Below are positions 7,919 to 35,857 of a stretch of 64,000 bases of DNA, one piece after another; the stretch's first letter is position 1; every line of letters starts with the position of its first letter. Source of the DNA: Ostreococcus lucimarinus (lineage: Eukaryota); assembly GCA_000092065.1 (NCBI GenBank), contig CP000585.1. One strand, written 5' to 3'. The notes below the pieces were generated by a model that had not been told where the DNA came from, did not search any database, and was given only the letters and a program-made list of their open reading frames with translations. The position numbers and the translations under genes are program-made.

Positions 7919-9673
7919 ATGCGCGCCGTGACGTTCCCGAACGCGCGCCCGACGGGCGCGACGCGAACGGCGCGAGCGCGCGCGCAGGCGGCGAAACGCG
8001 CGACGCGGGGCGGCGATCATCAACGCAATCCGCGAAATGTCGAGAGGCATCGACGGCTGAGCGTCGTGATGCGACGCGATCGCGACGTCGCGATGCGCGG
8101 GGGGGTGAACGAAACGTTCGTGGATCTCGGAACGGCCTCGGGAGGGGTCGAGGAGGAGAAGGTGAGGGCGTCGGGGAAGACTCGGGACGACGAAGGGGAG
8201 ATGCTGTCGTTCGTGGTCTTCGGCGCGAGCGGGGACTTGGCGAAGAAGAAAATCTACCCGGCGCTGTTCGCGCTGTATTACGAGGGACGGTTGCCGAAGA
8301 ATTTCATGATTTACGGCTACGCGCGATCGAGCATGACGACGGAGGAGTTTCGGAATAAAATCGCGGAGTCGTTGACGTGTCGCATCGACTGGAGTAAGGC
8401 GGGGGAGAGCGACTGCGCGGCAAAGTCGGAAGAATTCTTCGCGCGGTGCGTGTACGTGCCGGGTCAATACGATCAAGCGAAGGACTTCAAGGCGTTGGAC
8501 GCGTTGATGTGCGAAAACGAACGCGCGGTTAGCAGCGTAAAGCGCGTGTTTTACCTGAGCATTCCGCCGAGCATCTTTGTACCGGTGGCGCAAAACGCGG
8601 CGCGCGAGTGCCAAAGCAAGACTGGGGACACGAGAGTCATCGTAGAGAAACCGTTCGGGAGAGACTTGACGAGCTCTCGCGAGTTGACCGCGGCGCTCGC
8701 GCAAGACTTGAGCGAGGAGCAAACGTATCGCATCGATCACTACCTCGGGAAGGAGTTGATTGAGAATCTCACCGTCATGCGCTTTTCGAACATCATGTTC
8801 CAACCGCTTTGGAACAGAAACTACATCCGCAACGTGCAAATCAACTTTAGTGAAAACTTTGGCACCGAAGGTCGCGGTGGTTATTTCGATAACTACGGCA
8901 TCATTCGCGACATTATGCAGAACCACTTGCTGCAAATCTTGGCGCTCTTTGCGATGGAGGAACCGGCGAGCCTGGACGCGGAGGACATTCGCAACGAAAA
9001 GGTCAAGGTGATTCGCTGCATGCGTCCGATTGAGATGGATAATGTCGCGTTGGGTCAGTACAAAGGACGAGAAACCGATGGGAAGAAGTATCCGGCGTAT
9101 TTGGACGACGAGACAGTGCCGAAGGGGTCGCTTTGCCCGACGTTCGCCGCGATGGCTTTGTTCATCGATAACGCGCGTTGGGACGGCGTACCGTTTTTGC
9201 TCAAGGCGGGTAAGGCCTTGCACAAGCGTCAAGCGGAGATTCGCGTGCAGTTCCGTCACGCACCTGGTAACTTGTACGGGGAAAGACAAGGTAGAGTTGA
9301 GCACGTCACCAACGAGCTCGTGATTCGCATTCAACCAGACGAAGCGATCTACTTGCGTATCAACAACAAAGTCCCGGGTTTGGGGCAGCGATTGGATCAA
9401 ACGATTTTAGATCTCCAATACAAGAACGCGTACGGTCAAGTTGAGCTTCCGGATGCGTACGAGCGTTTGATTTTGGACGTCATCAACGGCGACAAGCGTC
9501 TCTTCATTCGCAACGACGAACTCGAAGCGGCTTGGAAGCTCTTCACCCCGCTCTTAGACAAAATCGAAGAGCAAAAGATCGCACCGGAGCTTTACCCGTA
9601 CGGATCTCGTGGTCCGATCGGCGCTCACTACCTGGCTTCGCGTTTCAACGTGCGATGGGGAGACACCGAATAA
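7919..9673 (+). CDS. G6PD: Glucose-6-phosphate 1-dehydrogenase (long N-terminal extension, probably plastid-targeted)
   Basis: NADP-binding motif [23 protein letters not shown], active-site signature [14 protein letters not shown], and a C-terminal dimer domain. The ATG at 7919 was verified. Confidence 0.92.
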
Positions 9674-15418: not shown

Positions 15419-18400
15419 CTAAATTTCATCGGCGTTTCGACTGATGACTCTTCGCAGAGACGACTCACGCATCATCCTCATGAGGGAGTAGTACATCTTC
15501 ATTTCATCCCGTCGTCTTCCGGGATAATCTAACGACCGAATTAAACGCAAACCTCGACAGACGTTGATCAGCTCATCAGTGTTGGCGATTTCGTTCACGA
15601 AGACGTCGGAGAGTTTGAAATTGTACATCGTGCGAACAAAAAAGCCGACGGTGACGAAAACAAAGCCGTACAGCGCGCGAAGACTGTAGCTCGATAAGCC
15701 CAAGCTCGACACTAAACCGACGAGGTATCGATCGCTTATGGTGGCGTATAAAACCCCGTAATCTGAAGGCGGTAGCGTCGAGTCAATTCCACAGAAATCC
15801 GGCGCAGCGGTTGGGAAAGAGGGCGACGTCGGAGTCACTTCCCACAAATTCGCCGTCGGCGTCGATCCTAGCGTCATGTTTAAGCCGATGTACGCCGACG
15901 TGTTGAAATCCAAGATCTCGACCATGGTCTCAGGTGTGAGATGAAAGCCGCGCGGTATCACGTTTGCGAACTGGATACTCCCTTGACCGTTGGTGATGAC
16001 GCCGGCGAGCGCGGCGCAATGCGCGTTGGTGAGCGTCGCCACCAAGTCTTGCGAAACCGTCTTCGCCTTCAGCGGGCCGAGTCTAGTGAACTCCGTCGTG
16101 ATAGTCATCTTGGCCGTGCACGTGGATGCTGCTGCTGCTGTGTTGAGCGACTGTGCGAGAGCTAGTTTCGAACTTTGCGGCAAAATCCAAGCGCTTTGAG
16201 AATACTTTGGAAACCGCACGCAGTCGGAGTCAATGCTGCGAAAGGAAAGACCTCTGAGAAGTTCTGACTTCATTGCCTCTTGCGAGATCGAAGACATCCC
16301 GTAACCGGTCGCGAACCCAGAGTATATCCTGTGACGCTCCGTCTTTTCATCCGCGTAGAAGTCTAATTGCACCTGCATCGTCGCAGCTTCTATTCTGTTG
16401 CTCGTCAACGCCGGATTGAATGTGCTAAAGATGAAAATCGGCCCGGTGAGCAACAGCATGATGATGGCGATGATGCCGCCGCCGAGTAGAATCTTAAGGG
16501 GCCAAGGCACAGGTTTTGCTCCGCTGTAATACTGGCGTCTGTTCCGTCTCCACGAGATGAGCATGTCCGTTTTGTGCAACAGGTAGTAAAGCGTCTCGTA
16601 CCGGAACCACATGACGTAATCTATGCTCGTGTCGCACACGACCCAGTCCAAAAGAGTTCGTATTTCGAACAAGAATGGCAACGTGTTGATGAGGTTGTAC
16701 ACGAATCGTCCTACAGGGGTATTCCCGAAACGCATGAGGACGATTTTGAACTGATACCCCTCCCTAAAACCTTCTCGAAGTTGCAACGCGCTGACGATGA
16801 ATTGGAAGAGCATCAAAACCGTAAACGCCTTGAGATGCGAGTTATGTCGCGGAGACACGAATGAACGCGTGTCCAGTAACGGAAGGAAAATGAAAACCAG
16901 TGAGACGTATAGCACGACTTGTGCAAAGTGCAAGTAGAACTTCAACTTGATGTTCTGCGAAAGATACACCAAGCGCATCACAATTATCCACATCACAGAC
17001 GACACGATGGAAATCGTCAGTCCCGTTCCAAAGGACTCCGTCGAACTCAGCGCCGTGCCAGACTCGAAGACTAAGTTACGGTAACCCGTGACAAACCAAC
17101 AAGTAATGATTAATTGTAAGAAAATCTCCAAGGAGTAAAGGTCGACGCCCGGTTTGCCGACATTCCTTTTCGGCATTTTGGCGGAATTGCTAAGACAAAT
17201 CTGCGTCACCAATTCTCTGAAACGAGTTTGTGCAACGTGTATACCCCTAGTGAAGAGGCCGAACGTCCTCATATACGCCCTTCTCCGTTCACGTCGTCTC
17301 AAAGCACGAGTGCGTTCCTTACTAGTGCGTCCTTCTAGATGGTGCGTCTCGACTTGCCGTGTTTTTCCTGTCGCGACATCCTCAAGCGGCGGCGACGTCA
17401 ACGCCGCCAAGTCGATGTCGTCCTTGAATTCACCAGCATGGTACGTCTGATAATCTTCTCGAGGAGCTAGCGGGATGGCATCGCGCCTCGTGCATTGACC
17501 CAAACTATGCATGTGTGACATGTGTAAGACGAGCGTGACAATGAGAAATATGTCTGTCCAGACTTCATCGCGAACCAAATTTCGAGCGCGTGGGACGGTG
17601 AGAAGAGTCGCACTCAACGTGCTAAACTCACTGTCCGCGGCCGGGTCATACAACGTCATCGTCGGACAATACGGTTGCGCACTGATGTACCACTTGTTGC
17701 GGTTGTCAAACTTTGCGTTCGCATCAAGTTCCATGCAGAACGCCTTGCTTCGGAGCAAAATCCGTGCGTAAAAGCACGCGACGGAATACCAGAAGATGAA
17801 ACGCCACATCTCCGGCAGTGGCTGCGGATTCCACATCGCCGCGAACGCCAAAATGAAGATCACGAGACATGCACTCATCAAATCGACGTGATCGATGAAG
17901 TTACACACCAAAGCGATGTACAACAAGCGCTCGCTTTGAGAATAGATGATCTTTCCGAAGCCGGTAATGATATTCGCGCCGCCCCAGTCTCCTTTTCGAG
18001 TCCACTCGCTTTCGCCGCCTTTGTCGTTGGGCAACGGATATAGCGCGGGATCGAGCAAGTAAGCGGCAGAATTTCTCGCAGCGTGGACAACCTTGGCAAC
18101 GCCATTTATCAACTTGTCTTTGCCCGATAAAACCTCTTCACCTTCCTCGTCGTCTTGCGGCATTGGCATGGTGACGACGTCGGATGGCTCTGACGGAGGT
18201 CCGTAACCAATCGACCTTGAACACGATTGCACGGTGAAGGAGTAGCTCATACCCGGAGTTAGACCAGAGATCACATGTGATGACGGTGCCCGTGACTCTG
18301 CATCAACGTCCACTTTCACTGGGTTCACGTGATGTGGAAATATCGTTGTCCGCGGCGAACGCTCGCGCTTTATAGTGAATTGTTCGATGTCGTCAGTCGA

Positions 18401-21400
18401 GCCGCGCATCTTCCACTTCACCTCGACGGTGGTTGAGTTTTGTGCCCGCACAGTGACATGTTCAGGAACATATTTTTCCGCCGCCGTCTCTTCGTCGATT
18501 GTGTGCCTGAACTTTTGGAAATGAGTCCATTCAGACGCTTGCAAGGCGCTCGCTCGAACTTTGTCGGTGATCATTTTGTACTCTTCATCAATCTCCTGTT
18601 GAATCTTTGCTCGCCATCCAAGAATGTATTTGCGATACAAGATGGAACGGCGAGCACGCTTGTCCATTGCGTTTTTTTCTAATCGCAAGACTTCACGGAC
18701 GTATCGTTCGTTGGAGAAAAGTTGCGCTTGAACCGAGCAAAGAATGAATAGCGCGACGTCGACGCCTATGGAACCAGAGCTGTAACCCAACACAGACACA
18801 CAGTCTGCAGCGAGCATGGTAGCGTCACACGCCGAGCCGAGTTTACGGACACCGAACAAGGAGTTAATTGTTTCGCACATGCGCGTACCCACAACACATG
18901 ACCCAAGTCGCGCAGTGCGACCATTGAGAAGTATCGGCTTGATATAGGGGATCTGATACACAAGTTTCGCCGCGAGGACGGTGAAGACGTACACGGGCAA
19001 GAGACGGAACAACTCGCCATTCCACCATTTGTGGGCGCGACTCGGGAATATTCGAGTGTTTATTCGCAACTCATTGAAGCGCATCGAAAACAAAATCGTG
19101 ATTCCCGCATAGCACAGTGATATGAAATCACTATCGTGCTGCGCCACGGCAGCCGTCGTAGTGAGAATAACGATGACCAAAAGTAGATACTTGTAGAAGA
19201 ACTTCAAGAAGAATTGACCCATGATCTCTTCAATTCTCCGTCGCACAGTCGTTCGTCGCTCGTGAATCGCCATCGAAGCGATTTGGCTGAAAGTGTAGTG
19301 CTCTTGAATGACTTGCAATTCTTCCTTAATTGAAACTTGCCTCGATAGATTTCGATTCGTCCAATTGGCGCGCTTCATTTCTTCCCTTTGAAGGTCTGCG
19401 TCCACGCTCGGAACGTACTCTTGGAGTTGCACGTTTACCGCGTCCCATCGCTTTATTTTGTCATCGTAGGAAAGTTCTGATGTTTCATCGAGCTTGCGCC
19501 GTTCTGCGAGGCGAGTATTGACTTTGTTTGCGAGAGATGTAAACGCCTCTGACTGCACCCACTCGCTACCCATCTTTTGGCCTTTCGCTTTCACGTAGCC
19601 GCGCATCCATGCCGTGCGGACGTCGTCCCGAACCATGTTTTTGTGTCCTTTTCGCACGTAATGTCCCACGAGTAACATCACGAGGATGTCAGATATTATT
19701 TCGTACTCATGTACAAAAACTGGCCTCGAGTTGCAATCCAAATACGCTGACGGCGCAGGCGCTGCGGCAGCGGAGGACGGACAGTCCCAAATATCGAGCC
19801 AAAACCGTTTTTCAGGGCACGTCTCACAGTAATTTGTATTGAGCCAACTCGGCGGCAGGCGCAAGGCGGCCATGATGTGTATCGCCAAGATGGCGCCGAT
19901 GATGAGAAGTATTGCGTAACCTTGAGACTGAAATCTCACAACTCCTGCGCGATTGTTGAAGGCCAAAAAGTATCCAAGGATGATGATATATATAGAACTC
20001 GTCACATCTGATTTTAAGAAGGCATTGATCAGTAACACGGCCATCGCGAGCAGATACTTCAAGCTCGCGAGCTGCTCAATCGCGGAATCTAGTGTCTCGA
20101 AGGTATTCTTGACATCCCACTTCACGAATCGATAAACCATCCTTATGACGATTGGGCGCCATCCGTACAGTGCGATTTTACTTTTGCTATGCTTCAAACT
20201 CCCGGCATTCACCTGTTTGACGAGATTGGCGAATATATCTTCTTCTGCGCGAATCGGCGTCTGCTGCACCATGGGGGACATGCCTTCATCCGTCGTGACG
20301 ATTTTCTTCTTGCCCACTGGCGTTTCGATGTTTTTGTTTTTCATGCGCTCGGCGACGATGAGCAATTTCAACTTCTTTGCCACATCGCATCCCTGAACTT
20401 CACCGCGAAGCTTTGCCCAATAACTCGCTCGCGGAACTGCGGTCGCCGTCGTCGATTTTGCTTTCCGTTGCACCTTGACATTGTGTCGTCTCTGCAAGAA
20501 TCCGTGTAAAACGGCGAAAATGATCACCGCATAATGCGCTCCAAAAATGTACCAGTTTGTCGTAAAAGTCAAGCACGCTTGCGTCGGGAACTGGTTTGAT
20601 GATGACGCCGCAACACTAGCATCCTGACAAAATGTCTTGGTGGAATCGAGAACGTAAGGCCACGCACAACAACTCGTGGTGGTTTGCAAGTCATCGCCGA
20701 GACGTGGATCGTAAAGTGAAATCAAGCCAAGCCAACTCCCCCAATTTTCGTTTACTAACGTGTTCAGCGATCCCGATTGGAAGATCGTCAAGAGCGTGAG
20801 CTGTTTGAACACGATGGAAATCGTCGCCAGTAGAGCCAAATAAAATCCGTAGTCATTCACCTCAGTGTGAATTGATACTGGCGCGGCATGATGATAGTCT
20901 GATTCCCTCAGGTGACGCCTGAACCACCCAGACGATCCAGATGGACTGCGCCTTGTCTGAATCGGCGGCGGCGTTATGTCGGCGGCCGTGATAACATTGC
21001 TTCGTATCCGACGCATTCGGTTCAAGAATCGCCATGAATCCGTCAAAATTCTCATCGACGTTCCAATGACGCTAAAAGTTCCATACCGAAGCGGTACGGG
21101 AGCCTTGCCGCGGATTGTTGGCACAGCGAGTTCTATGCATGCAAACATTATAACCACGACGTAGAGCATACTCACGACTTCGACTCGAAACGCCACACAG
21201 ATTGTTGCCACGAGTAAAAGCAGCTCCATGGATACGCCGTGTAACGCGGATTCGAATTCATCACCTACCGAGTCTTTCACGTGCTTTAATACCGTAGCGG
21301 TAGCGTGATACAGAAAGATAGACGGACGCATGGTGTTGATGTCCTCGACCTTCGTCGACTCGGATTCCTTACTCATATCGAGACGACGAATCGGTGTTCC

Positions 21401-22777
21401 CTCAGGCAGCCCATCTTCGTACCAGTCACTGTCGTAATCTTCACTATCGCGCTGCAAACGCTCGTTAAGCCAGTAATACAACATCACGCACATGACCAGT
21501 GTAAGGTAACGCGGCCACATGTACTTCCAAGAAAGGAGCGCCGGCGTCTGCAGTAAACCAAAGTCGAGCGGGGTGAGCTGTCGACTCAAACTACTCGGCC
21601 ACGCGTCCATGAGACTACCGGCGACCTCTGGTATGTTATAGACGTACAAAAGCGAGATGTACACGTACTGAAATGCGATATAATACCAAAGCGTATTTCG
21701 CAAACGCACCAGCCACTTATCTTGGAACTTCTTGGCGTCAACATCGGCGCCTCTCGTACCACTGAGGTTTCTCGCTGACGCCAGCATTCGCAAAATGGTC
21801 ACCAAAACTGTGACTATGTCCACAACTTGAATCATACTCATGGGCAATCCTCCAACGGTTGCTAAACCAGTGAACGTGATTGCGGCGGCTAAGATTGGAG
21901 CGTAGAGCAAAGGTCGATACCCTCCCACGCGGACTCTGAATCCCATCAGCTCTTGAAACTTGAATGAACTATCTATATCGCCGTGTGACACAGCCAAGGC
22001 GAAGCATGCGTTGGCCAACAGAGCGAAAATGAACCCAACAGTTTGCGCCGGTTTCATGCAACAAAGCCGTCCATTCCTACCCAAGGTCCAAAAGCCAAAG
22101 ATGTTTGCGACTTTGGACGTTTCTAATTCCTGCGACGTCGCCCCGAGCGAAGTAAACACATACGACCCGAATATGATCAATCCCGTCAGGAATTGCATTT
22201 TACCCGTGGTTGAAATTGCGTGCTCAAGTCGCGTCAAACGTGACGTGCGTGGATCACCGCGCCCGCCGACGAAACGCGTGTGCACCGCGACGAAGAGGAG
22301 AAACTGCAACACTCCGTTTGCCGAGTATCCCACGACGCCGCAACAAATGAAACCGAGCAGACGCCACCATTTCTGTATCGTATTCCGCAAATCTTCCTCT
22401 GTCAGCCCGACGACGAACATCAAACCTCGTCGCAAGTACTTCGCAATCGCTGTGGTTCTTCTCGACCCGCCAGCCTCCAAATGAGCCAACTCTCGTCTCA
22501 ATTCGCCTCGCGCCCACAGCGACGTCAAAGCCACGAACGCATCCGGAATGAGCGAACGCGTGCCGACCGTCGCTTCATCGAACTTTTGCAACCCGAACAC
22601 TTCCAGCCATTTCGTTGGGACTCGTTCCGCCCCGATCGCGGCGTACGACGTTTGAAAAACGACCTGCACGAACAAAAATCCTCCGGCGACGAACGTCGTA
22701 AACGTCACCGCCTTTGTCGACCGTAACACCGCCCTCGCCACCGGTCGCGTCGACGCGCACAGCGCGAGGTAACACAT
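15419..22777 (-). CDS. PIEZO: Piezo-type mechanosensitive cation channel homolog (~2450 aa, intronless in this model)
   Basis: Anchor-domain PF(x2)E(x6)W motif: PFLFEIRTLLDW. The C-terminal block GFVFVTVGFFVRTMYNFKLSDVFVNEIANTDELINVCRGLRLIR aligns to the Piezo1 inner helix/CTD (IGKFVRGFFSEISHSIMFEELPCVDRILKLCQDIFLVR). There are dozens of TM segments across 2.4k residues, consistent with the Piezo blade architecture. The track start at 22795 is GTG. The first ATG is at 22777. The N-terminus could be spliced. Confidence 0.85.
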   Translation of the reverse strand: MCYLALCASTRPVARAVLRSTKAVTFTTFVAGGFLFVQVVFQTSYAAIGAERVPTKWLEVFGLQKFDEATVGTRSLIPDAFVALTSLWARGELRRELAHLEAGGSRRTTAIAKYLRRGLMFVVGLTEEDLRNTIQKWWRLLGFICCGVVGYSANGVLQFLLFVAVHTRFVGGRGDPRTSRLTRLEHAISTTGKMQFLTGLIIFGSYVFTSLGATSQELETSKVANIFGFWTLGRNGRLCCMKPAQTVGFIFALLANACFALAVSHGDIDSSFKFQELMGFRVRVGGYRPLLYAPILAAAITFTGLATVGGLPMSMIQVVDIVTVLVTILRMLASARNLSGTRGADVDAKKFQDKWLVRLRNTLWYYIAFQYVYISLLYVYNIPEVAGSLMDAWPSSLSRQLTPLDFGLLQTPALLSWKYMWPRYLTLVMCVMLYYWLNERLQRDSEDYDSDWYEDGLPEGTPIRRLDMSKESESTKVEDINTMRPSIFLYHATATVLKHVKDSVGDEFESALHGVSMELLLLVATICVAFRVEVVSMLYVVVIMFACIELAVPTIRGKAPVPLRYGTFSVIGTSMRILTDSWRFLNRMRRIRSNVITAADITPPPIQTRRSPSGSSGWFRRHLRESDYHHAAPVSIHTEVNDYGFYLALLATISIVFKQLTLLTIFQSGSLNTLVNENWGSWLGLISLYDPRLGDDLQTTTSCCAWPYVLDSTKTFCQDASVAASSSNQFPTQACLTFTTNWYIFGAHYAVIIFAVLHGFLQRRHNVKVQRKAKSTTATAVPRASYWAKLRGEVQGCDVAKKLKLLIVAERMKNKNIETPVGKKKIVTTDEGMSPMVQQTPIRAEEDIFANLVKQVNAGSLKHSKSKIALYGWRPIVIRMVYRFVKWDVKNTFETLDSAIEQLASLKYLLAMAVLLINAFLKSDVTSSIYIIILGYFLAFNNRAGVVRFQSQGYAILLIIGAILAIHIMAALRLPPSWLNTNYCETCPEKRFWLDIWDCPSSAAAAPAPSAYLDCNSRPVFVHEYEIISDILVMLLVGHYVRKGHKNMVRDDVRTAWMRGYVKAKGQKMGSEWVQSEAFTSLANKVNTRLAERRKLDETSELSYDDKIKRWDAVNVQLQEYVPSVDADLQREEMKRANWTNRNLSRQVSIKEELQVIQEHYTFSQIASMAIHERRTTVRRRIEEIMGQFFLKFFYKYLLLVIVILTTTAAVAQHDSDFISLCYAGITILFSMRFNELRINTRIFPSRAHKWWNGELFRLLPVYVFTVLAAKLVYQIPYIKPILLNGRTARLGSCVVGTRMCETINSLFGVRKLGSACDATMLAADCVSVLGYSSGSIGVDVALFILCSVQAQLFSNERYVREVLRLEKNAMDKRARRSILYRKYILGWRAKIQQEIDEEYKMITDKVRASALQASEWTHFQKFRHTIDEETAAEKYVPEHVTVRAQNSTTVEVKWKMRGSTDDIEQFTIKRERSPRTTIFPHHVNPVKVDVDAESRAPSSHVISGLTPGMSYSFTVQSCSRSIGYGPPSEPSDVVTMPMPQDDEEGEEVLSGKDKLINGVAKVVHAARNSAAYLLDPALYPLPNDKGGESEWTRKGDWGGANIITGFGKIIYSQSERLLYIALVCNFIDHVDLMSACLVIFILAFAAMWNPQPLPEMWRFIFWYSVACFYARILLRSKAFCMELDANAKFDNRNKWYISAQPYCPTMTLYDPAADSEFSTLSATLLTVPRARNLVRDEVWTDIFLIVTLVLHMSHMHSLGQCTRRDAIPLAPREDYQTYHAGEFKDDIDLAALTSPPLEDVATGKTRQVETHHLEGRTSKERTRALRRRERRRAYMRTFGLFTRGIHVAQTRFRELVTQICLSNSAKMPKRNVGKPGVDLYSLEIFLQLIITCWFVTGYRNLVFESGTALSSTESFGTGLTISIVSSVMWIIVMRLVYLSQNIKLKFYLHFAQVVLYVSLVFIFLPLLDTRSFVSPRHNSHLKAFTVLMLFQFIVSALQLREGFREGYQFKIVLMRFGNTPVGRFVYNLINTLPFLFEIRTLLDWVVCDTSIDYVMWFRYETLYYLLHKTDMLISWRRNRRQYYSGAKPVPWPLKILLGGGIIAIIMLLLTGPIFIFSTFNPALTSNRIEAATMQVQLDFYADEKTERHRIYSGFATGYGMSSISQEAMKSELLRGLSFRSIDSDCVRFPKYSQSAWILPQSSKLALAQSLNTAAAASTCTAKMTITTEFTRLGPLKAKTVSQDLVATLTNAHCAALAGVITNGQGSIQFANVIPRGFHLTPETMVEILDFNTSAYIGLNMTLGSTPTANLWEVTPTSPSFPTAAPDFCGIDSTLPPSDYGVLYATISDRYLVGLVSSLGLSSYSLRALYGFVFVTVGFFVRTMYNFKLSDVFVNEIANTDELINVCRGLRLIRSLDYPGRRRDEMKMYYSLMRMMRESSLRRVISRNADEI

Positions 22778-22846
22778 AATGTAACAACACGACACCTACA
22801 TCGCGGCATCGCCATTCATCAGTCTTTCACTCTTCGCTCGCGAATT

Positions 22847-22898
22847 GTTCGCGTTCGCGTTCGCGTTCGCGTTCGCGTTCGCGTTCGCGTTCGCGTTC
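22847..22898. repeat. (GTTCGC)n microsatellite, ~9 units, ~70 bp upstream of the Piezo ATG
   Basis: Direct reading: gttcgcgttcgcgttcgc..., in the likely 5'UTR/promoter. Confidence 0.85.
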
Positions 22899-23274
22899 AT
22901 ACCAAATCACACCGCGCCGTCGACGCCGCGATCAGCGCCGCGCCGTGCACCGCCCTCGACATCGCCATCAGCGCGTCCGCGTCGGACAGCGACACCGATG
23001 CGTCGTCATCGGCTCCATCGTCGTCGGCTCCATCGTCGAAACTCAAACTTTTATTCGTCGTCGTCGCTCGATCCGCGCGCGACGACGACGCGCGCATCGA
23101 CGACGCGACGCGCGCCAACATGGTACTTTCGCGCTCGCCCCGCGCGCCGCGCTCGCGCGCGCGCGTGTGCGGCGCTTTCGAAAGATGACGAGTTAGTTGG
23201 TTGGGTGAAAAAGGAATTTCAAACTCTGGAGCGACAAAACGCGAATACAGTTACAACAACAAAGATGATAAATA

Positions 23275-24444
23275 TTAGCGACTGGACGACGCGCGCGCGG
23301 CGGCGAGCGCGGAGGTGAACCATGAATGGGTGTCGATGCGCACGATGCCGGCGTCGGCGACGTTGGAGGCGTCGAGGGTGACGAAACTGCCCTCGGCGGC
23401 GGCGGCGACTTTGCGAGCGACTTCGTCGGCGGAACCGTGGACGAGACGCGCGCGAGCGGTCGGTGGCGCTGATTTTACGCCCTCGACGCCGTCAGCGGAG
23501 GGAAGTTGGACGATATCGTCGACGATCGCGTCGCGGTAGACGCCGATGACGTGTGGTTGGGGAGAGAAGCCGCTCGGAAAGGAGGCGTCGATGCCTCCGC
23601 CTCGAGAATTGACGTGCGCGATGTGCACGCGCTCGGCGAATTTGACAGACACGTCGCCGCCGCCTGAATCGATACCGATCATTTCTTCACCCGCACCCTC
23701 TAAACTTCCGATGGAAACGGCGCCACCACTCGTGCGCACGAGACCGAATTCACCCACGCGTAGACTCTTCGCCGTCGCGTCGCCGCCGCCGGTGTTGACG
23801 TTCACTTTATCCCCAAAAACCGCCTCAGCGTGAAACTTCCCTTCTGGTTCGGTGTCTACGTACACCACCGACCCAACAAACTTACCGCGCATCGTCACGT
23901 CCCCCCCCGCGGTGCGCACTCTGGAATCCGCGCTCACCGATCCTCGCGCGCGCACCGCGCCTCCGCTCGTATCCAGGTCCATCGTCGACCCTTTGATCGT
24001 CCCCAATTCCACGTCCCCGCCGTTCGTGCGCACTTTCACCCCCGCCTCGACGACCGATTCCACCGAAATCGTCGAATTCTCCCCCCTCAACCGCGCGTCG
24101 ACGCCGCAAAATCTCGGCGGTATCCTCGCCCGCACCGCCGCGCGCGTCCCGTCCCTCGCCCCCGTCCTCGCGTCCCGCACCAGCACCACCTCCCCTCGCC
24201 CGCCGTCGCCTCGCGCGCGCGTGATCTCGAACTCGGCGTCGTGCGCGTCGTCCGCGATCTCGATCTCGATGCGCTCCGTCGCCGACGCGTGCGGCGCGAC
24301 GACGACGTCCACGCGCGCGCGTTCGCTGTCGAACGCCACCGTCGCGCCCGGCGCGACGCCGTCGAACGTCGTCGTCGCGTGCGTCGCCGCGCGCGCGAAC
24401 GGCGCCGACCGCAGCGTCGCGCGCGCGCGCGCGAGTCGACGCAT
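23275..24444 (-). CDS. DUF4097-type (FAM185A-like) beta-helix repeat protein with an N-terminal targeting presequence
   Basis: Recurring ~20-25-aa units around GG(D/A)V: TNGGDVELGTIKGS, TSGGAVRARGSVSADSRVRTAGGDVTMRG, NTGGGDATAKS, TSGGAVSIGSLEG, DSGGGDVSVKF, NSRGGGIDASF. The R/A/T-rich N-terminus looks like a presequence. The ATG at 24442-24444 was verified. Confidence 0.4.
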   Translation of the reverse strand: MRRLARARATLRSAPFARAATHATTTFDGVAPGATVAFDSERARVDVVVAPHASATERIEIEIADDAHDAEFEITRARGDGGRGEVVLVRDARTGARDGTRAAVRARIPPRFCGVDARLRGENSTISVESVVEAGVKVRTNGGDVELGTIKGSTMDLDTSGGAVRARGSVSADSRVRTAGGDVTMRGKFVGSVVYVDTEPEGKFHAEAVFGDKVNVNTGGGDATAKSLRVGEFGLVRTSGGAVSIGSLEGAGEEMIGIDSGGGDVSVKFAERVHIAHVNSRGGGIDASFPSGFSPQPHVIGVYRDAIVDDIVQLPSADGVEGVKSAPPTARARLVHGSADEVARKVAAAAEGSFVTLDASNVADAGIVRIDTHSWFTSALAAARASSSR

Positions 24445-24530: not shown

Positions 24531-25652
24531 ATGGACGCGAACGCGAACGCGACGCGCGAGAGGGACGCGCCGGACGCCGTCGCGGACGCGGCGTGCGACG
24601 TCGAGCGACGCGCGCACGTGATCAGTGGACGCGTGGCGCAGTTGGATTCAAACATGAAGTCGCTGAAACTTGAACTCTCGGCGCTGAACGATGCGCTGAT
24701 GGACATGGAGGGGAAAGCGAAGGAGGGGGACGGGGCGTACGATACGATGGAGACGCGCGCGGCGCTGTACGGCGCGAGACGGGTGATACAAGGCGCGGGA
24801 CCGGGTGGAGACTTGTACGGGTACATGAAGCCGAAGACGACGCACTCGCGGTTTCTGCGACTGTTCGTCGGGGGAGCGGTGGAGATCAATTCCGTGAGAC
24901 AAGAGGCGAGATTGCGGTTGAAGGAGGAGTATTATCACTTTCGCGATCAAAATACGGTGGTTTACGTGTTGGCGCCGTTGGCGTTGTTGCTCGGATACAG
25001 CGAACGCGTGCACCCGAAGGCGCTGGACGCGACGCAGATTGGATACTTGAGGGCGTTTTATCCGATCGCACTGCAGCTGTATTGGGTGTGGCTTTTGTAC
25101 TTTTACACCGCACTCGCGCTGCGGGAGAACATTTTGCGCGTGAACGGGTCGACGATTCGTCCGTGGTGGATTAAGCACCACTACTATTCGGCGGCGATGG
25201 CGCTGTGCGTGTTGACGATGGATTTAGATTCGCCCGCGTGCGAGGCGTTCACTTTGAGATTCTTACTCTTCACCACGCTTCAGGGAGTGGTGATGTTAGT
25301 CCAAAATAGATACCAGCGTTTCCGCTTGTACACGCGCGTGGCGATGGGGAAAGCGTCGCCCATGGACGTGGCGTCGATTGAACTCTCGGGCGGACAGCTC
25401 AAGCTTTTGTACCCACTCCTGTTCGGTTTGCAGGCGATGCAACTGTACGTCGGCGCGAGCGTGCTGTTCGTGGTCATGACGACGTATCGCATAGAAAGCC
25501 ACATCATGCGAGAGTGGCAAGCGTCCGTGGCGGGCGTCTTATTCGTTCTCATGGCGGTTGGCAACTTCACCGCCACGCTCAACACGCTGCGATCCAAGCG
25601 CTCATTCGCGCACAAGAAGCGGACTCGCAGCCAAAGTTTTCATCAGGATTAA
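24531..25652 (+). CDS. TMEM120: TMEM120/TMPIT (TACAN) family membrane protein
   Basis: N-terminal coiled coil (KSLKLELSALNDALMDMEGKAKEG) followed by 6 predicted TM helices. It has the family hallmark W-W-x2-H-H-Y (IRPWWIKHHYYSAAMALCVL; compare human TMEM120A GWWVFHHYVS). Length is 373 aa. The ATG was verified. Confidence 0.65.
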   Translation: MDANANATRERDAPDAVADAACDVERRAHVISGRVAQLDSNMKSLKLELSALNDALMDMEGKAKEGDGAYDTMETRAALYGARRVIQGAGPGGDLYGYMKPKTTHSRFLRLFVGGAVEINSVRQEARLRLKEEYYHFRDQNTVVYVLAPLALLLGYSERVHPKALDATQIGYLRAFYPIALQLYWVWLLYFYTALALRENILRVNGSTIRPWWIKHHYYSAAMALCVLTMDLDSPACEAFTLRFLLFTTLQGVVMLVQNRYQRFRLYTRVAMGKASPMDVASIELSGGQLKLLYPLLFGLQAMQLYVGASVLFVVMTTYRIESHIMREWQASVAGVLFVLMAVGNFTATLNTLRSKRSFAHKKRTRSQSFHQD

Positions 25653-33197: not shown

Positions 33198-34100
33198 ATG
33201 GCGCCACACTTCGGGACGCACCGCCTCGGGACGGCGACGCCTTTGATGGATCACGAACGAGAATTACGCGTCGCCGAGCGCGCGGCGCGCGTCGCGGGAG
33301 CGGAGATCGCGCGCGCGTGGACGCGCGATCGCTCGAACGAGACGAGCGTGGAGTACAAAGGCGCGGTGGATCTCGTGACGGCGACTGATAAACTGTGTGA
33401 AGATTTAGTCTTGAGCGCGCTGCGGGAAGCGTTTCCAGAGGATGATGTCGTCGGAGAAGAGACGCACGCGGCGAGCGGGGCGAAAGAATTGTCGAAAACG
33501 ACGTCGGTGAGGTGCTGGTACGTCGATCCGCTGGATGGGACGACGAATTTTGTGCACGGGTATCCGTTTAGTTGCGTGTCGGTGGGGTTGTGCGAGGGCG
33601 GCGAACCGACGGTGGGCGTCGTTTTTAATCCGATATCGGACGAAATGTTCACCGCGGTGCGAGGACGCGGGGCGTTTTTGAATGGGAAGAAAATTTCGTG
33701 CAGTGCGGTGCGAACGCTGGGGAAGGCGCTGATCGGAACGGAGATTGGCGTGCACAGGGACGGGAAGACGGTGGACGCGATTATGGGTCGCGTGCGAGCG
33801 TTGGTGGAAAAGTCACGCAGCGTGCGGTGCTCAGGGTCGTGTGCGATGAATATGTGCGGCGTGGCGATGGGTAGACTGGATGGGTTCTTCGAGATCGGGT
33901 TCGGCGGACCATGGGATTGCGTGGCGGGAACGATTATTGTGCGCGAAGCTGGCGGCGTCGTGTTCGATCCTTCGGGAGACGCGTTCGACATTTACGCGCG
34001 ACGAGTGCTGTGCGCGAATGGAAATATCGGTGATGAATTCGTGAAAGCGCTAAGCGAGGTCCCAGATGGGCCGGGGGAACCTCAGCGACCGGAGATCTAG
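33198..34100 (+). CDS. Inositol monophosphatase family (IMPase/VTC4-like)
   Basis: Motifs DLVTATDKLCEDLVLSALREAFPED...VGEE and WYVDPLDGTTNFVHGYPFSCVSVGL (metal-binding W-x-DP-DGT), plus a C-terminal WDCVAGTIIVREAGG. The ATG at 33198 was verified. An internal Met at 33246 is possible. Confidence 0.85.
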   Translation: MAPHFGTHRLGTATPLMDHERELRVAERAARVAGAEIARAWTRDRSNETSVEYKGAVDLVTATDKLCEDLVLSALREAFPEDDVVGEETHAASGAKELSKTTSVRCWYVDPLDGTTNFVHGYPFSCVSVGLCEGGEPTVGVVFNPISDEMFTAVRGRGAFLNGKKISCSAVRTLGKALIGTEIGVHRDGKTVDAIMGRVRALVEKSRSVRCSGSCAMNMCGVAMGRLDGFFEIGFGGPWDCVAGTIIVREAGGVVFDPSGDAFDIYARRVLCANGNIGDEFVKALSEVPDGPGEPQRPEI

Positions 34101-34252: not shown

Positions 34253-35857
34253 TTAGCGAACGTGGTTAGTGTTTTGTAATTTTCGAGTTGAGTTTTTTAC
34301 CTGCATTGGCGACAAGTCGTACGAAAACTTCACCACGGGACCGCGAGGGCGGCGAAATTCATCATCCATCGCATGCTCTTCCACGCGATCGTAATATATC
34401 ATCTCGCGTTCTTCAGCGCTTCCGTGCACGTCGAAATGGTTGCTCGAAAATGTGTACTCGTAAATCTGAATCGGTGCCCCGTCAATCGGCGCAAACGTGC
34501 GTGGAATCACCTTCATGTAGTGTTCAAAAGCCGTTCTTCGATTTTCACGCGCGTCAAACTGGGCGCCGCCGCCGCCGTTGTCTTTCTTTGCGAATCTCCC
34601 TCCCATGTCCACTGGAATGAGGCTCCAAGCTTTGCGCAAATGTCGTGGAATGAAACTGGGTTTACCTGGAACGTGCTCGCCGAATGATAAGTGTCGAACG
34701 ACGTGCGTCATGTCCACGTCCGCGAGCGAGTGCGATCGCGATCGAGGCACAAAATAAAACGCTCCCGGCACTCGATTGACGTTGAATTGACCATTCACGG
34801 AGCAACCAGGCGTTCTCACGACGGAATCGTGCCGACCGTCACCATCGGCATCGTGTCCAAAAACCGTGCCTCGTTTCTTTGGCGATGCCTCGTCGTTGCC
34901 GTCCTCTGTCGCGGCTTCGATTTCTTTCAGCAGAGAATCTGCGAAAGCCGCGATCGCTTCAGCGCTGCGCTTGCCGTGATACACCTCGAATTGAATGTTC
35001 TCAGCCTCGCGGTGTAACTCTGCAATCGACGTTTGATTTTCTTTCGAAGGATGCAAAGACCCGGCGCGATAGACGCGCACGGATGGGTACGCTTGCACGT
35101 GCAATTTCGAGCACAACTCGTCGTTCTTTTCCGTCGAGCAGTCCACGGAGGCCATGCCGAGCGAAAGTCGGGAGCGTCCGGTGCGACGCAACTCGAGACG
35201 CACCATCTCAGCCGCGTGCTCCCAGATCGGCGCGAAATTCCGACAGTGCAAACACCACGGCGCGTGAAAGTTCACGAGGAGTAATCCATGATGAACGCGA
35301 ACCATGTGCTCGAACATGTCTAACCCCGCGATGTCGAATGCGATTCTTTTGTTGCCGTAGTGGTCGTAGTCGGTCGTAGTGCCGTACTCGAACGCGTCGT
35401 CCAGCGTCTCGGCGTTCACCGGCGCCGCGTGTTGAATGTTCATGTACTTCATAGGCCCGCTCAACGGATGTTTGTAGACGTTTTCACCGCTTATGTTCGT
35501 CTTTCGCGAGCCGATGGCGTCGACCACGTCCAGATGAAGGAACTCGCATTCGACGAATGGGAAATCCACGCGAACGTTCACTCGTAGCTTGGCGTCCGCG
35601 GTGTGATCGACGACGATGTCCGTGACGTACGTCGCCGCGAACAGCGCACTGACTTGCATCGTAAACAGCGCGATGAAGATCAACGAGACGACGATTGTGA
35701 ATAAACCACCTCCAACCGTGCGCTCGGTGAAGCCTGAGATTTCAGGCGGCGCGTGGGCGTACATGTCAAGGCGTCGAAGGGCGTTGGCGCAGCGACCATC
35801 GTCGGGATAGTCGCCGGGAAGCGATGTCGCGCCAGTGCTCGTTCGACGAACCACCAT
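34253..35857 (-). CDS. PDI-C-type protein: ERGIC_N (Erv41/46-like) + thioredoxin (WCLHC) + COPII-coated ERV domain
   Basis: N-terminal: GGLFTIVVSLIFIALFTMQVSALFAATYVTDIVVDHTADAKLRVNVRVDFPFVECEFLHLDVVDAIG. Trx domain: LLVNFHAPWCLHCRNFAPIWEHAA. The C-terminal TM is at the very N-terminus of the ORF's reading direction, i.e. near the ATG. This architecture is like plant PDIL5-3/5-4. Confidence 0.6.
   Translation of the reverse strand: MVVRRTSTGATSLPGDYPDDGRCANALRRLDMYAHAPPEISGFTERTVGGGLFTIVVSLIFIALFTMQVSALFAATYVTDIVVDHTADAKLRVNVRVDFPFVECEFLHLDVVDAIGSRKTNISGENVYKHPLSGPMKYMNIQHAAPVNAETLDDAFEYGTTTDYDHYGNKRIAFDIAGLDMFEHMVRVHHGLLLVNFHAPWCLHCRNFAPIWEHAAEMVRLELRRTGRSRLSLGMASVDCSTEKNDELCSKLHVQAYPSVRVYRAGSLHPSKENQTSIAELHREAENIQFEVYHGKRSAEAIAAFADSLLKEIEAATEDGNDEASPKKRGTVFGHDADGDGRHDSVVRTPGCSVNGQFNVNRVPGAFYFVPRSRSHSLADVDMTHVVRHLSFGEHVPGKPSFIPRHLRKAWSLIPVDMGGRFAKKDNGGGGAQFDARENRRTAFEHYMKVIPRTFAPIDGAPIQIYEYTFSSNHFDVHGSAEEREMIYYDRVEEHAMDDEFRRPRGPVVKFSYDLSPMQVKNSTRKLQNTNHVR

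Follow-up and report, generated by a model that had tools for sequence, protein, structure and literature searches.

A gene on the minus strand of a 64,000-nucleotide stretch of Ostreococcus lucimarinus DNA (contig CP000585.1; the window) very probably encodes a Piezo-type homologue with Piezo architecture. The probability of this assignment, in family and in architecture, is put at about 0.85. The gene spans 15419-23121 in two exons (23121-22903 and 22795-15419), and the spliced product has 2,531 amino acids. The best explanation of the locus is that it is the single-copy nuclear gene for the Piezo of O. lucimarinus. Its origin in a compact algal genome, proposed in an earlier note on this DNA, agrees with the open reading frame (ORF) at 34253-35857, which is identical to XP_001418112.1 of O. 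lucimarinus CCE9901. The Piezo gene is already known: it is annotated as XP_001418409.1 and is named OluPiezo or OlPiezo in published trees and alignments. Zhang et al. 2019 included XP_001418409.1 among the 18 sequences of their Piezo tree (PMC6395819), and Fang et al. 2021 aligned 'OlPiezo' over the beam, inner helix, and C-terminal domain (PMC7796506). The earlier note described Piezos of unicellular phototrophs as essentially uncharacterised. No functional study of any algal Piezo was found in the literature searched, which agrees with that description, but the novelty was overstated for a protein that already stands in published trees.

Profile hidden Markov models were used to assign the protein to the Piezo family, TCDB 1.A.75. 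The protein matches Pfam PF24874 (Piezo_THU9_anchor; 1.4e-34, 120 bits against a 28-bit cut-off) and PF12166 (Piezo_cap; 2.4e-28, 100 bits against a 26.9-bit cut-off), both far above threshold. PF23188 (THU_Piezo1) scores 25.7 bits, slightly below its 27.2-bit cut-off, and Piezo_TM1-24 and Piezo_TM25-28 do not match the Ostreococcus protein. A sequence search of the PDB returned Piezo chains only (Piezo1, Piezo2, and C. elegans PEZO-1). The profile models, the PDB search, and the predicted fold all bear out the earlier identification as a Piezo homologue. The anchor signature PF(x2)E(x6)W reported there is present as PFLFEIRTLLDW at 16643-16678 (spliced residues 2113-2124), and its P, F, E, and W are invariant in alignments that reach plant and unknown algal Piezos. 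This motif was rejected as stand-alone evidence; it arises in 87 of 20,000 shuffles of the protein (0.4%) and has a spurious match in an unrelated part of another Piezo, P0176. At the sequence level, the motif alone is only suggestive and the profile matches are decisive. The long ORF is colinear with 11 Mamiellales homologues at 52-100% identity. The gene appears to be under purifying selection, a supporting point, since full-length orthologues occur across Ostreococcus lineages at 52-93% identity and marine metagenomes supply 335 members of the closest cluster.

The gene model differs from the single ORF of the earlier note. That ORF, of about 2450 codons at 15419-22777, was recovered as 2,452 codons on the minus strand when read from the first ATG at 22777, and as 2,458 codons when read from the preceding stop. 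The gene is divided as follows.

22903-23121, minus strand: exon 1, 73 codons (MLARV...STARCDL), encoding an acidic N-terminal tail and the first predicted transmembrane helix
22796-22902, minus strand: intron, 107 nucleotides, phase 0, GTATGA...ACTGAT...GATGTAG with GT-AG borders
15419-22795, minus strand: exon 2, the ORF of the earlier note, 2,458 codons plus the stop codon at 15419-15421

Exon 1 begins with the ATG at 23121, the first past an in-frame stop, and ends at 22903 with ...STARCDL. Exon 2 opens with GTG TCG TGT (VSC...) at 22795, and the stop codon that opens the long ORF is the TAG of the 3' splice site. Two homologues of 62-63% identity, P0003 and P0004, and P0131, a protein from an O. 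mediterraneus transcript, have 65-105 additional N-terminal residues that include a hydrophobic helix ending '...ARCDLVS' or '...VRVDLVT'. In the window, the counterpart of this extension lies upstream of the ORF in a different frame. The exon 1 product aligns with the continuous N-termini of these three proteins, and its helix, SRAVHGAALIAASTARCDL, recurs as a conserved element in all three, in the uninterrupted frames of P0003 and P0004 and in the O. mediterraneus transcript. The genomic contigs L001 and L003, from two other Ostreococcus lineages, also have an intron at this codon boundary (..DL|), and removal of the L001 intron is shown by P0131, a Marine Microbial Eukaryote Transcriptome Sequencing Project (MMETSP) protein that reads '..VRVDL|VTMTYAVLFF'. 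The GT..AG borders and a CTGAY branch-like site (ACTGAT in the window) sit at an identical codon boundary in three lineages. These comparisons place an intron at the 5' end of the Piezo gene, and the ATG at 22777, which lies inside the second predicted N-terminal helix, is predicted not to be the start because exon 1 and the intron precede the long ORF. The description 'apparently intronless' is contradicted by the 73-codon exon and the conserved 107-nucleotide intron. The intron also holds a perfect (GAACGC)x8.7 microsatellite on the gene strand at 22847-22898, and a 15-nucleotide repeat in exon 1 (23003-23038) encodes a DDGAD repeat.

The domains of the spliced protein follow the order seen in Piezos, with one addition, a fibronectin type III (fn3) domain.

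18716-22795, minus strand: distal and middle blade, spliced residues 74-1433, about 23 predicted helices
18473-18709, minus strand: beam, spliced residues 1436-1514, a K/R-rich helix of about 79 residues (H105-183 in model mb384e1456e3c)
18176-18466, minus strand: fn3 domain, spliced residues 1517-1613, directly after the beam, Pfam PF00041
17504-17935, minus strand: THU8-equivalent four-helix unit, spliced residues 1694-1837, PF23188 at 25.7 bits (below the cut-off)
16424-17146, minus strand: THU9, anchor, and outer helix, spliced residues 1957-2197, PF24874, containing PFLFEIRTLLDW
15731-16393, minus strand: cap (C-terminal extracellular domain), spliced residues 2208-2428, beta-rich with four cysteines, PF12166
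15422-15682, minus strand: inner (pore) helix and C-terminal domain, spliced residues 2445-2463 and 2464-2531

The C-terminal 1,200 residues were modeled with AlphaFold2 (model mb384e1456e3c) from a shallow alignment, with a mean predicted local distance difference test (pLDDT) score of 55. The model of the N-terminal half, also from a shallow alignment, has a mean pLDDT of 46 and was used for secondary structure only. The C-terminal model runs from a long helix through fn3, two sets of four helices, the anchor, the outer helix, the cap, and the inner helix to a helical C-terminal domain. The two sets of helices (1694-1837 and 1960-2081) are separated by a long loop and followed by the anchor helices with the motif, a long outer helix (2171-2199), a beta-rich domain (2208-2428), and the inner helix (2445-2463). 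A Foldseek search of the PDB with this model gave Piezo cryo-electron microscopy chains (Piezo1, Piezo2, and PEZO-1) as all of its top 19 matches, with E values of 2e-17 to 1e-6 over 880-985 aligned columns. The identity to mammalian Piezos in the fold alignment is 13-15%. The next matches are isolated fn3 domains with template modeling (TM) scores of 0.7-0.84. The Piezo matches identify the overall fold as that of the family. The 79-residue beam helix lies where a Piezo beam should, between the 24th predicted helix, which it follows directly, and the THU8 equivalent.

The THU9-anchor region can be aligned with PEZO-1, Piezo2, and Piezo1 chains, and the anchor glutamate is conserved. The earlier note described a residue-by-residue alignment of the C terminus with the Piezo1 inner helix and C-terminal domain. 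This alignment is nearly gapless over mouse Piezo1 residues 2457-2516, with a single 1-residue gap; the stretch alone is weak (E ~0.4) and is colinear with the significant match. Residues of the mouse Piezo1 pore are usually assigned roles in the hydrophobic gate, the C-terminal constriction, and selectivity. Seven mouse positions are conserved in OlPiezo: L2469 (L2448), Y2470 (Y2449), G2478 (G2457), F2480 (F2459), V2481 (V2460), R2482 (R2461), and E2496 (E2475). Five are substituted: V2476 (T2455), K2479 (F2458), M2493 (F2472), F2494 (V2473), and E2495 (N2474).

The fn3 domain was missed in the earlier note. It matches PF00041 (1.9e-9, 38 bits against a 25-bit cut-off), a PDB sequence search of the region returns fn3 domains, and the model shows a seven-strand beta sandwich at about residues 1518-1607 with pLDDT of 72-81. 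The domain sits in a loop that is intracellular in mouse Piezo1. In mammalian Piezos, the beam loop holds the clasp, latch, and lateral plug, and fn3 is located exactly where those proteins keep gating elements. The charge and cysteine distribution suggests that beam and fn3 are cytosolic, because the predicted outer loops and cap are cysteine-rich (4, 4, 4, 2, and 4 cysteines) and the inner loops, including beam and fn3, are K/R-rich and hold 0-1.

Relatives carrying the fn3 domain were sought more widely. A profile word-index search from a C-terminal alignment of six sequences yielded just four fragments and did not widen the taxonomic range. An exhaustive HMMER search of 1.84 billion representatives returned 834 relatives. 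Precomputed annotation places fn3 in 11 of 11 close homologues and in five oomycete proteins. A Mamiellales fn3 profile finds the domain at the same place in P0149, P0152, P0153, P0158, P0160, P0164, P0168, and P0219, and Pfam confirms it at 44-56 bits in P0152, P0153, and P0164. P0152 is Saprolegnia parasitica SPRG_20361, and homologues from Achlya, Aphanomyces, and Thraustotheca also bear fn3; the oomycete proteins compared are P0152 and P0297-P0300. The Thraustotheca protein P0300 has a precomputed PH domain, and in P0153 a PH-like match that falls slightly short of the Pfam cut-off follows fn3. The stretch from the 24th transmembrane helix (TM24) through beam and fn3 is colinear between Ostreococcus and oomycetes (E 1e-14 to 1e-22). 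The fn3 profile detected nothing in fish Piezo2, the liverwort Riccia, or Coccomyxa, and the eudicot Tripterygium protein P0014 gave neither a Pfam fn3 match nor a match to the profile. In a neighbor-joining tree of 528 pore-module columns, which is crude and carries no support values, the Piezos with fn3 all fall into a single clade, separate from land plants plus Coccomyxa and from fish Piezo2. In UniProt, the proteins of O. mediterraneus and of the oomycetes bear the name 'Fibronectin type-III domain-containing protein'. We did not find a paper discussing a Piezo fn3 domain in the literature searched, though the domain is visible in databases. The Micromonas-like Piezo P0012 (locus L002, 10001-22681) has 4,226 amino acids and is enlarged by Ala-, Gly-, and acidic-rich low-complexity inserts, and precomputed Pfam annotation misses its fn3 because one insert lies within the domain. 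The data suggest a provisional subgroup of fn3-bearing Piezos that comprises Mamiellales, oomycetes, and other relatives and includes OlPiezo. A stronger claim is tentative, at somewhat under even odds: that the Piezos of Mamiellales, oomycetes, and several protists form a distinct and ancient 'beam-fn3' lineage separate from land-plant, Coccomyxa, and animal Piezos, that cytosolic fn3 serves as a lineage-specific gating or tethering module, and that the Ostreococcus protein is naturally shortened to about eight units. If this lineage is real, 'OluPiezo' and plant PIEZO would not be related as simple orthologues, contrary to published trees.

Helices before the beam were called from family-averaged hydropathy and AlphaFold2 secondary structure. 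The roughly 23 helices of the blade and the one in exon 1 make about 24, arranged in six four-helix units, and the loops between the third and fourth helices of several units are long and cysteine-rich. The same procedure applied to a fish Piezo2 (P0303) recovered its known seven pre-beam units, 7+2 in total. P0224 and P0278 were dropped as vertebrate-like calibrators since they are distant Piezos of unknown origin, and the fish protein was used in their place. Two units follow the beam, as in mouse, because residues 1685-1754 map with a Mamiellales profile onto the PF23188 (THU8) region of fish Piezo2. The Ostreococcus total is therefore 6+2 units plus the outer and inner helices, about 34 helices by a crude count that uses the N-half model of pLDDT 46. 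A profile of the first Ostreococcus unit matches units 1 and 4 of fish Piezo2. Mouse Piezo has nine four-helix units and 38 helices. The Ostreococcus protein may thus be one blade unit short, at 8 units against 9 and about 34 helices against 38, and this count is uncertain because the N-half pLDDT is only 46. The topology anticipated in the earlier note was recovered in part: repeated four-helix units are recognizable, but the expected 36-38 helices were not reproduced.

Comparison with characterized Piezos places these features in context. Mouse and human PIEZO1 and PIEZO2 (5Z10, 6B3R, and 6KG7) have the same order of parts from the blade to the C-terminal domain. They share THU8 and THU9 after the beam, the PF(x2)E(x6)W anchor, and the residues equivalent to L2469, G2478, F2480, R2482, and E2496. 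OlPiezo differs from them in the fn3 domain after the beam, in having about six rather than seven pre-beam units, in the five replaced pore positions, and in its low identity in the fold alignment. The oomycete Piezos (S. parasitica SPRG_20361 and those of Achlya, Aphanomyces, and Thraustotheca) have the TM24-beam-fn3 module in common with OlPiezo, share its clade in the crude tree, and are among its best-scoring named pore-module relatives, at 170-196 bits compared to 75-94 for land plants, Coccomyxa, and fish. In contrast to OlPiezo, the oomycete proteins are longer, with additional hydrophobic groups ahead of the beam, some have a PH-like domain that follows fn3, and the identity in the C-terminal half is about 30%. 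Land-plant PIEZOs (AtPIEZO/ESC1, PpPIEZO1/2, Tripterygium P0014, and Riccia P0302) belong to the green lineage, contain the same pore-module Pfam families, and are grouped with the Ostreococcus protein in published trees. They differ in having about 20-22% identity and no fn3, in carrying the plant-specific PF25288 that is absent from the Ostreococcus protein, and in falling into a separate clade of the crude tree.

Going by its homology, the protein is most likely the subunit of a trimeric cation channel, propeller-shaped and gated by membrane tension. Its blade, of about eight four-helix units, would curve the membrane, and the long intracellular beam would link the blade with the pore module. 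The anchor PFLFEIRTLLDW, the outer helix, the cap, the inner helix, and the C-terminal domain would make the central pore. The fn3 domain at the end of the beam, cytosolic by analogy with mouse Piezo1, is most likely a docking or bracing module. In a wall-less cell of about 1 micrometre, such a channel would likely admit calcium or other cations upon swelling or shear; alternatively, its place of action may be an endomembrane, as it is in plants. The comparisons above establish the homology, the order of the domains, the gene structure, and the conservation; trimer assembly, gating by mechanical force, ion selectivity, the membrane in which the protein sits, and the function of fn3 we infer from sequence. 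Several observations weigh against this reading. Confidence is low in both AlphaFold2 models (mean pLDDT 55 and 46), and the Foldseek TM-scores to solved Piezos are only about 0.2, which is attributed to poor packing of the monomer model. Six pre-beam units were found compared to seven in vertebrates. An entry identical to the 2,531-residue spliced product was not found in the protein collection; either the GenBank model XP_001418409.1 differs from the spliced model or it is not indexed there. The pore and gate changes V2476T, K2479F, M2493F, F2494V, and E2495N mean that conductance, selectivity, and gating cannot simply be assumed. A role at the plasma membrane is not assured because plant PIEZOs are found in the tonoplast, where the Arabidopsis and moss homologues shape vacuoles (preprint 10.1101/2020.08.27.269282).

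An alternative is that the gene encodes a Piezo-fold protein of an internal membrane (vacuole, ER, or contractile compartment) that regulates organelle shape or ion release. The control of vacuole morphology by plant homologues (same preprint) speaks for it. Targeting information cannot be read from the Ostreococcus sequence, and the weak codon bias (G+C content at third codon positions, GC3, of 0.61 compared to 0.65-0.86 in neighboring genes) fits low expression. The plant localization need not transfer, however, because the Ostreococcus protein groups with oomycete Piezos in the crude tree and not with the land-plant and Coccomyxa clade. The sequence itself favors neither membrane, and we regard the internal-membrane role as the less likely alternative. 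A degenerate Piezo relative that has lost channel function, and is a large curved membrane scaffold whose fn3 recruits partners, would account for the replaced gate and selectivity positions and the seemingly missing blade unit. This is improbable: conservation extends to the anchor motif, to the glycine, phenylalanine, and arginine of the pore helix, and to the E2496 equivalent, and the pore module is strongly conserved across orthologues of 52-93% identity and as far as oomycetes. An intronless gene translated from the ATG at 22777, with 'exon 1' non-coding, is very improbable. It is what prokaryote-style gene callers give for this ORF in metagenomes, and the transcript support for the intron comes from O. 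mediterraneus rather than from O. lucimarinus itself. However, SRAVHGAALIAASTARCDL is kept in P0003, P0004, and the O. mediterraneus transcript, the splice borders and branch-like site are shared at one codon boundary by three lineages, and with a start at 22777 the helices ahead of the beam would be odd in number.

The genes around the Piezo locus are eukaryotic and include a bromodomain-BET protein, an ERGIC/thioredoxin protein, TMEM120, G6PD, and ClpB. The two genes next to the Piezo start are the following.

23275-24444, minus strand: DUF4097 gene, the sole gene between TMEM120 and Piezo
24531-25652, plus strand: TMEM120A/B (TACAN-family) gene, Pfam 5e-64, about 1.4 kb upstream of the Piezo start

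In mammals, TMEM120A is reported to be an inhibitor of PIEZO2 (PMC9280072). The Ostreococcus contigs L001 and L003 share the order TMEM120-DUF4097-Piezo, which the Micromonas-like L002 lacks. A functional link between TMEM120 and Piezo was rejected because the adjacency is absent from L002; where the order occurs, it is probably ordinary synteny. The Piezo coding sequence (15419-22795) has a G+C content (GC) of 0.51, with 0.50 at first codon positions (GC1), compared to an overall GC of 0.55-0.68 in neighboring genes. Horizontal transfer was rejected as the cause, since the drop occurs at all codon positions and the locus is syntenic across Ostreococcus. The lower GC is best explained by hydrophobic amino-acid content together with weak codon bias. 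ORF 34253-35857 is also identical to GenBank MDA9599333.1, which has the same sequence as XP_001418112.1. Two further proteins labeled '[bacterium]', MDA9599473.1 (TMEM120 family) and MDA9599335.1 (inositol monophosphatase), fall into the 90%-identity clusters of ORFs 24531-25652 and 33198-34100. Apparently, a contig of Ostreococcus was placed in the bin of a bacterial metagenome-assembled genome. The G6PD ORF at 7919-9673 (plus strand) encodes 584 amino acids, a length found on 184 contigs. The GenBank model XP_001417868.1 may be truncated at its N terminus, since it has only 490 amino acids, and may possibly have lost a transit peptide.

The gene itself brings nothing new, and fresh interest is limited to the fn3 domain at the beam, its sharing with oomycetes, and possibly the shortened blade; all three call for proper phylogenetics and structure work. 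The corrected gene model is one of three points of practical value, together with the fn3 domain, as the mark of a Piezo subgroup for which no description was found in the papers searched, and the compact protein itself. Cloning from the ATG at 22777, in a gene the earlier note considered convenient for heterologous expression, would drop the N-terminal tail and the first predicted helix and begin inside the second. OlPiezo, a compact Piezo that may lack one blade unit, comes from a wall-less and genetically tractable picoalga and offers a comparison point for the family; it could be of use in testing what blade length and the beam loop contribute to mechanogating.

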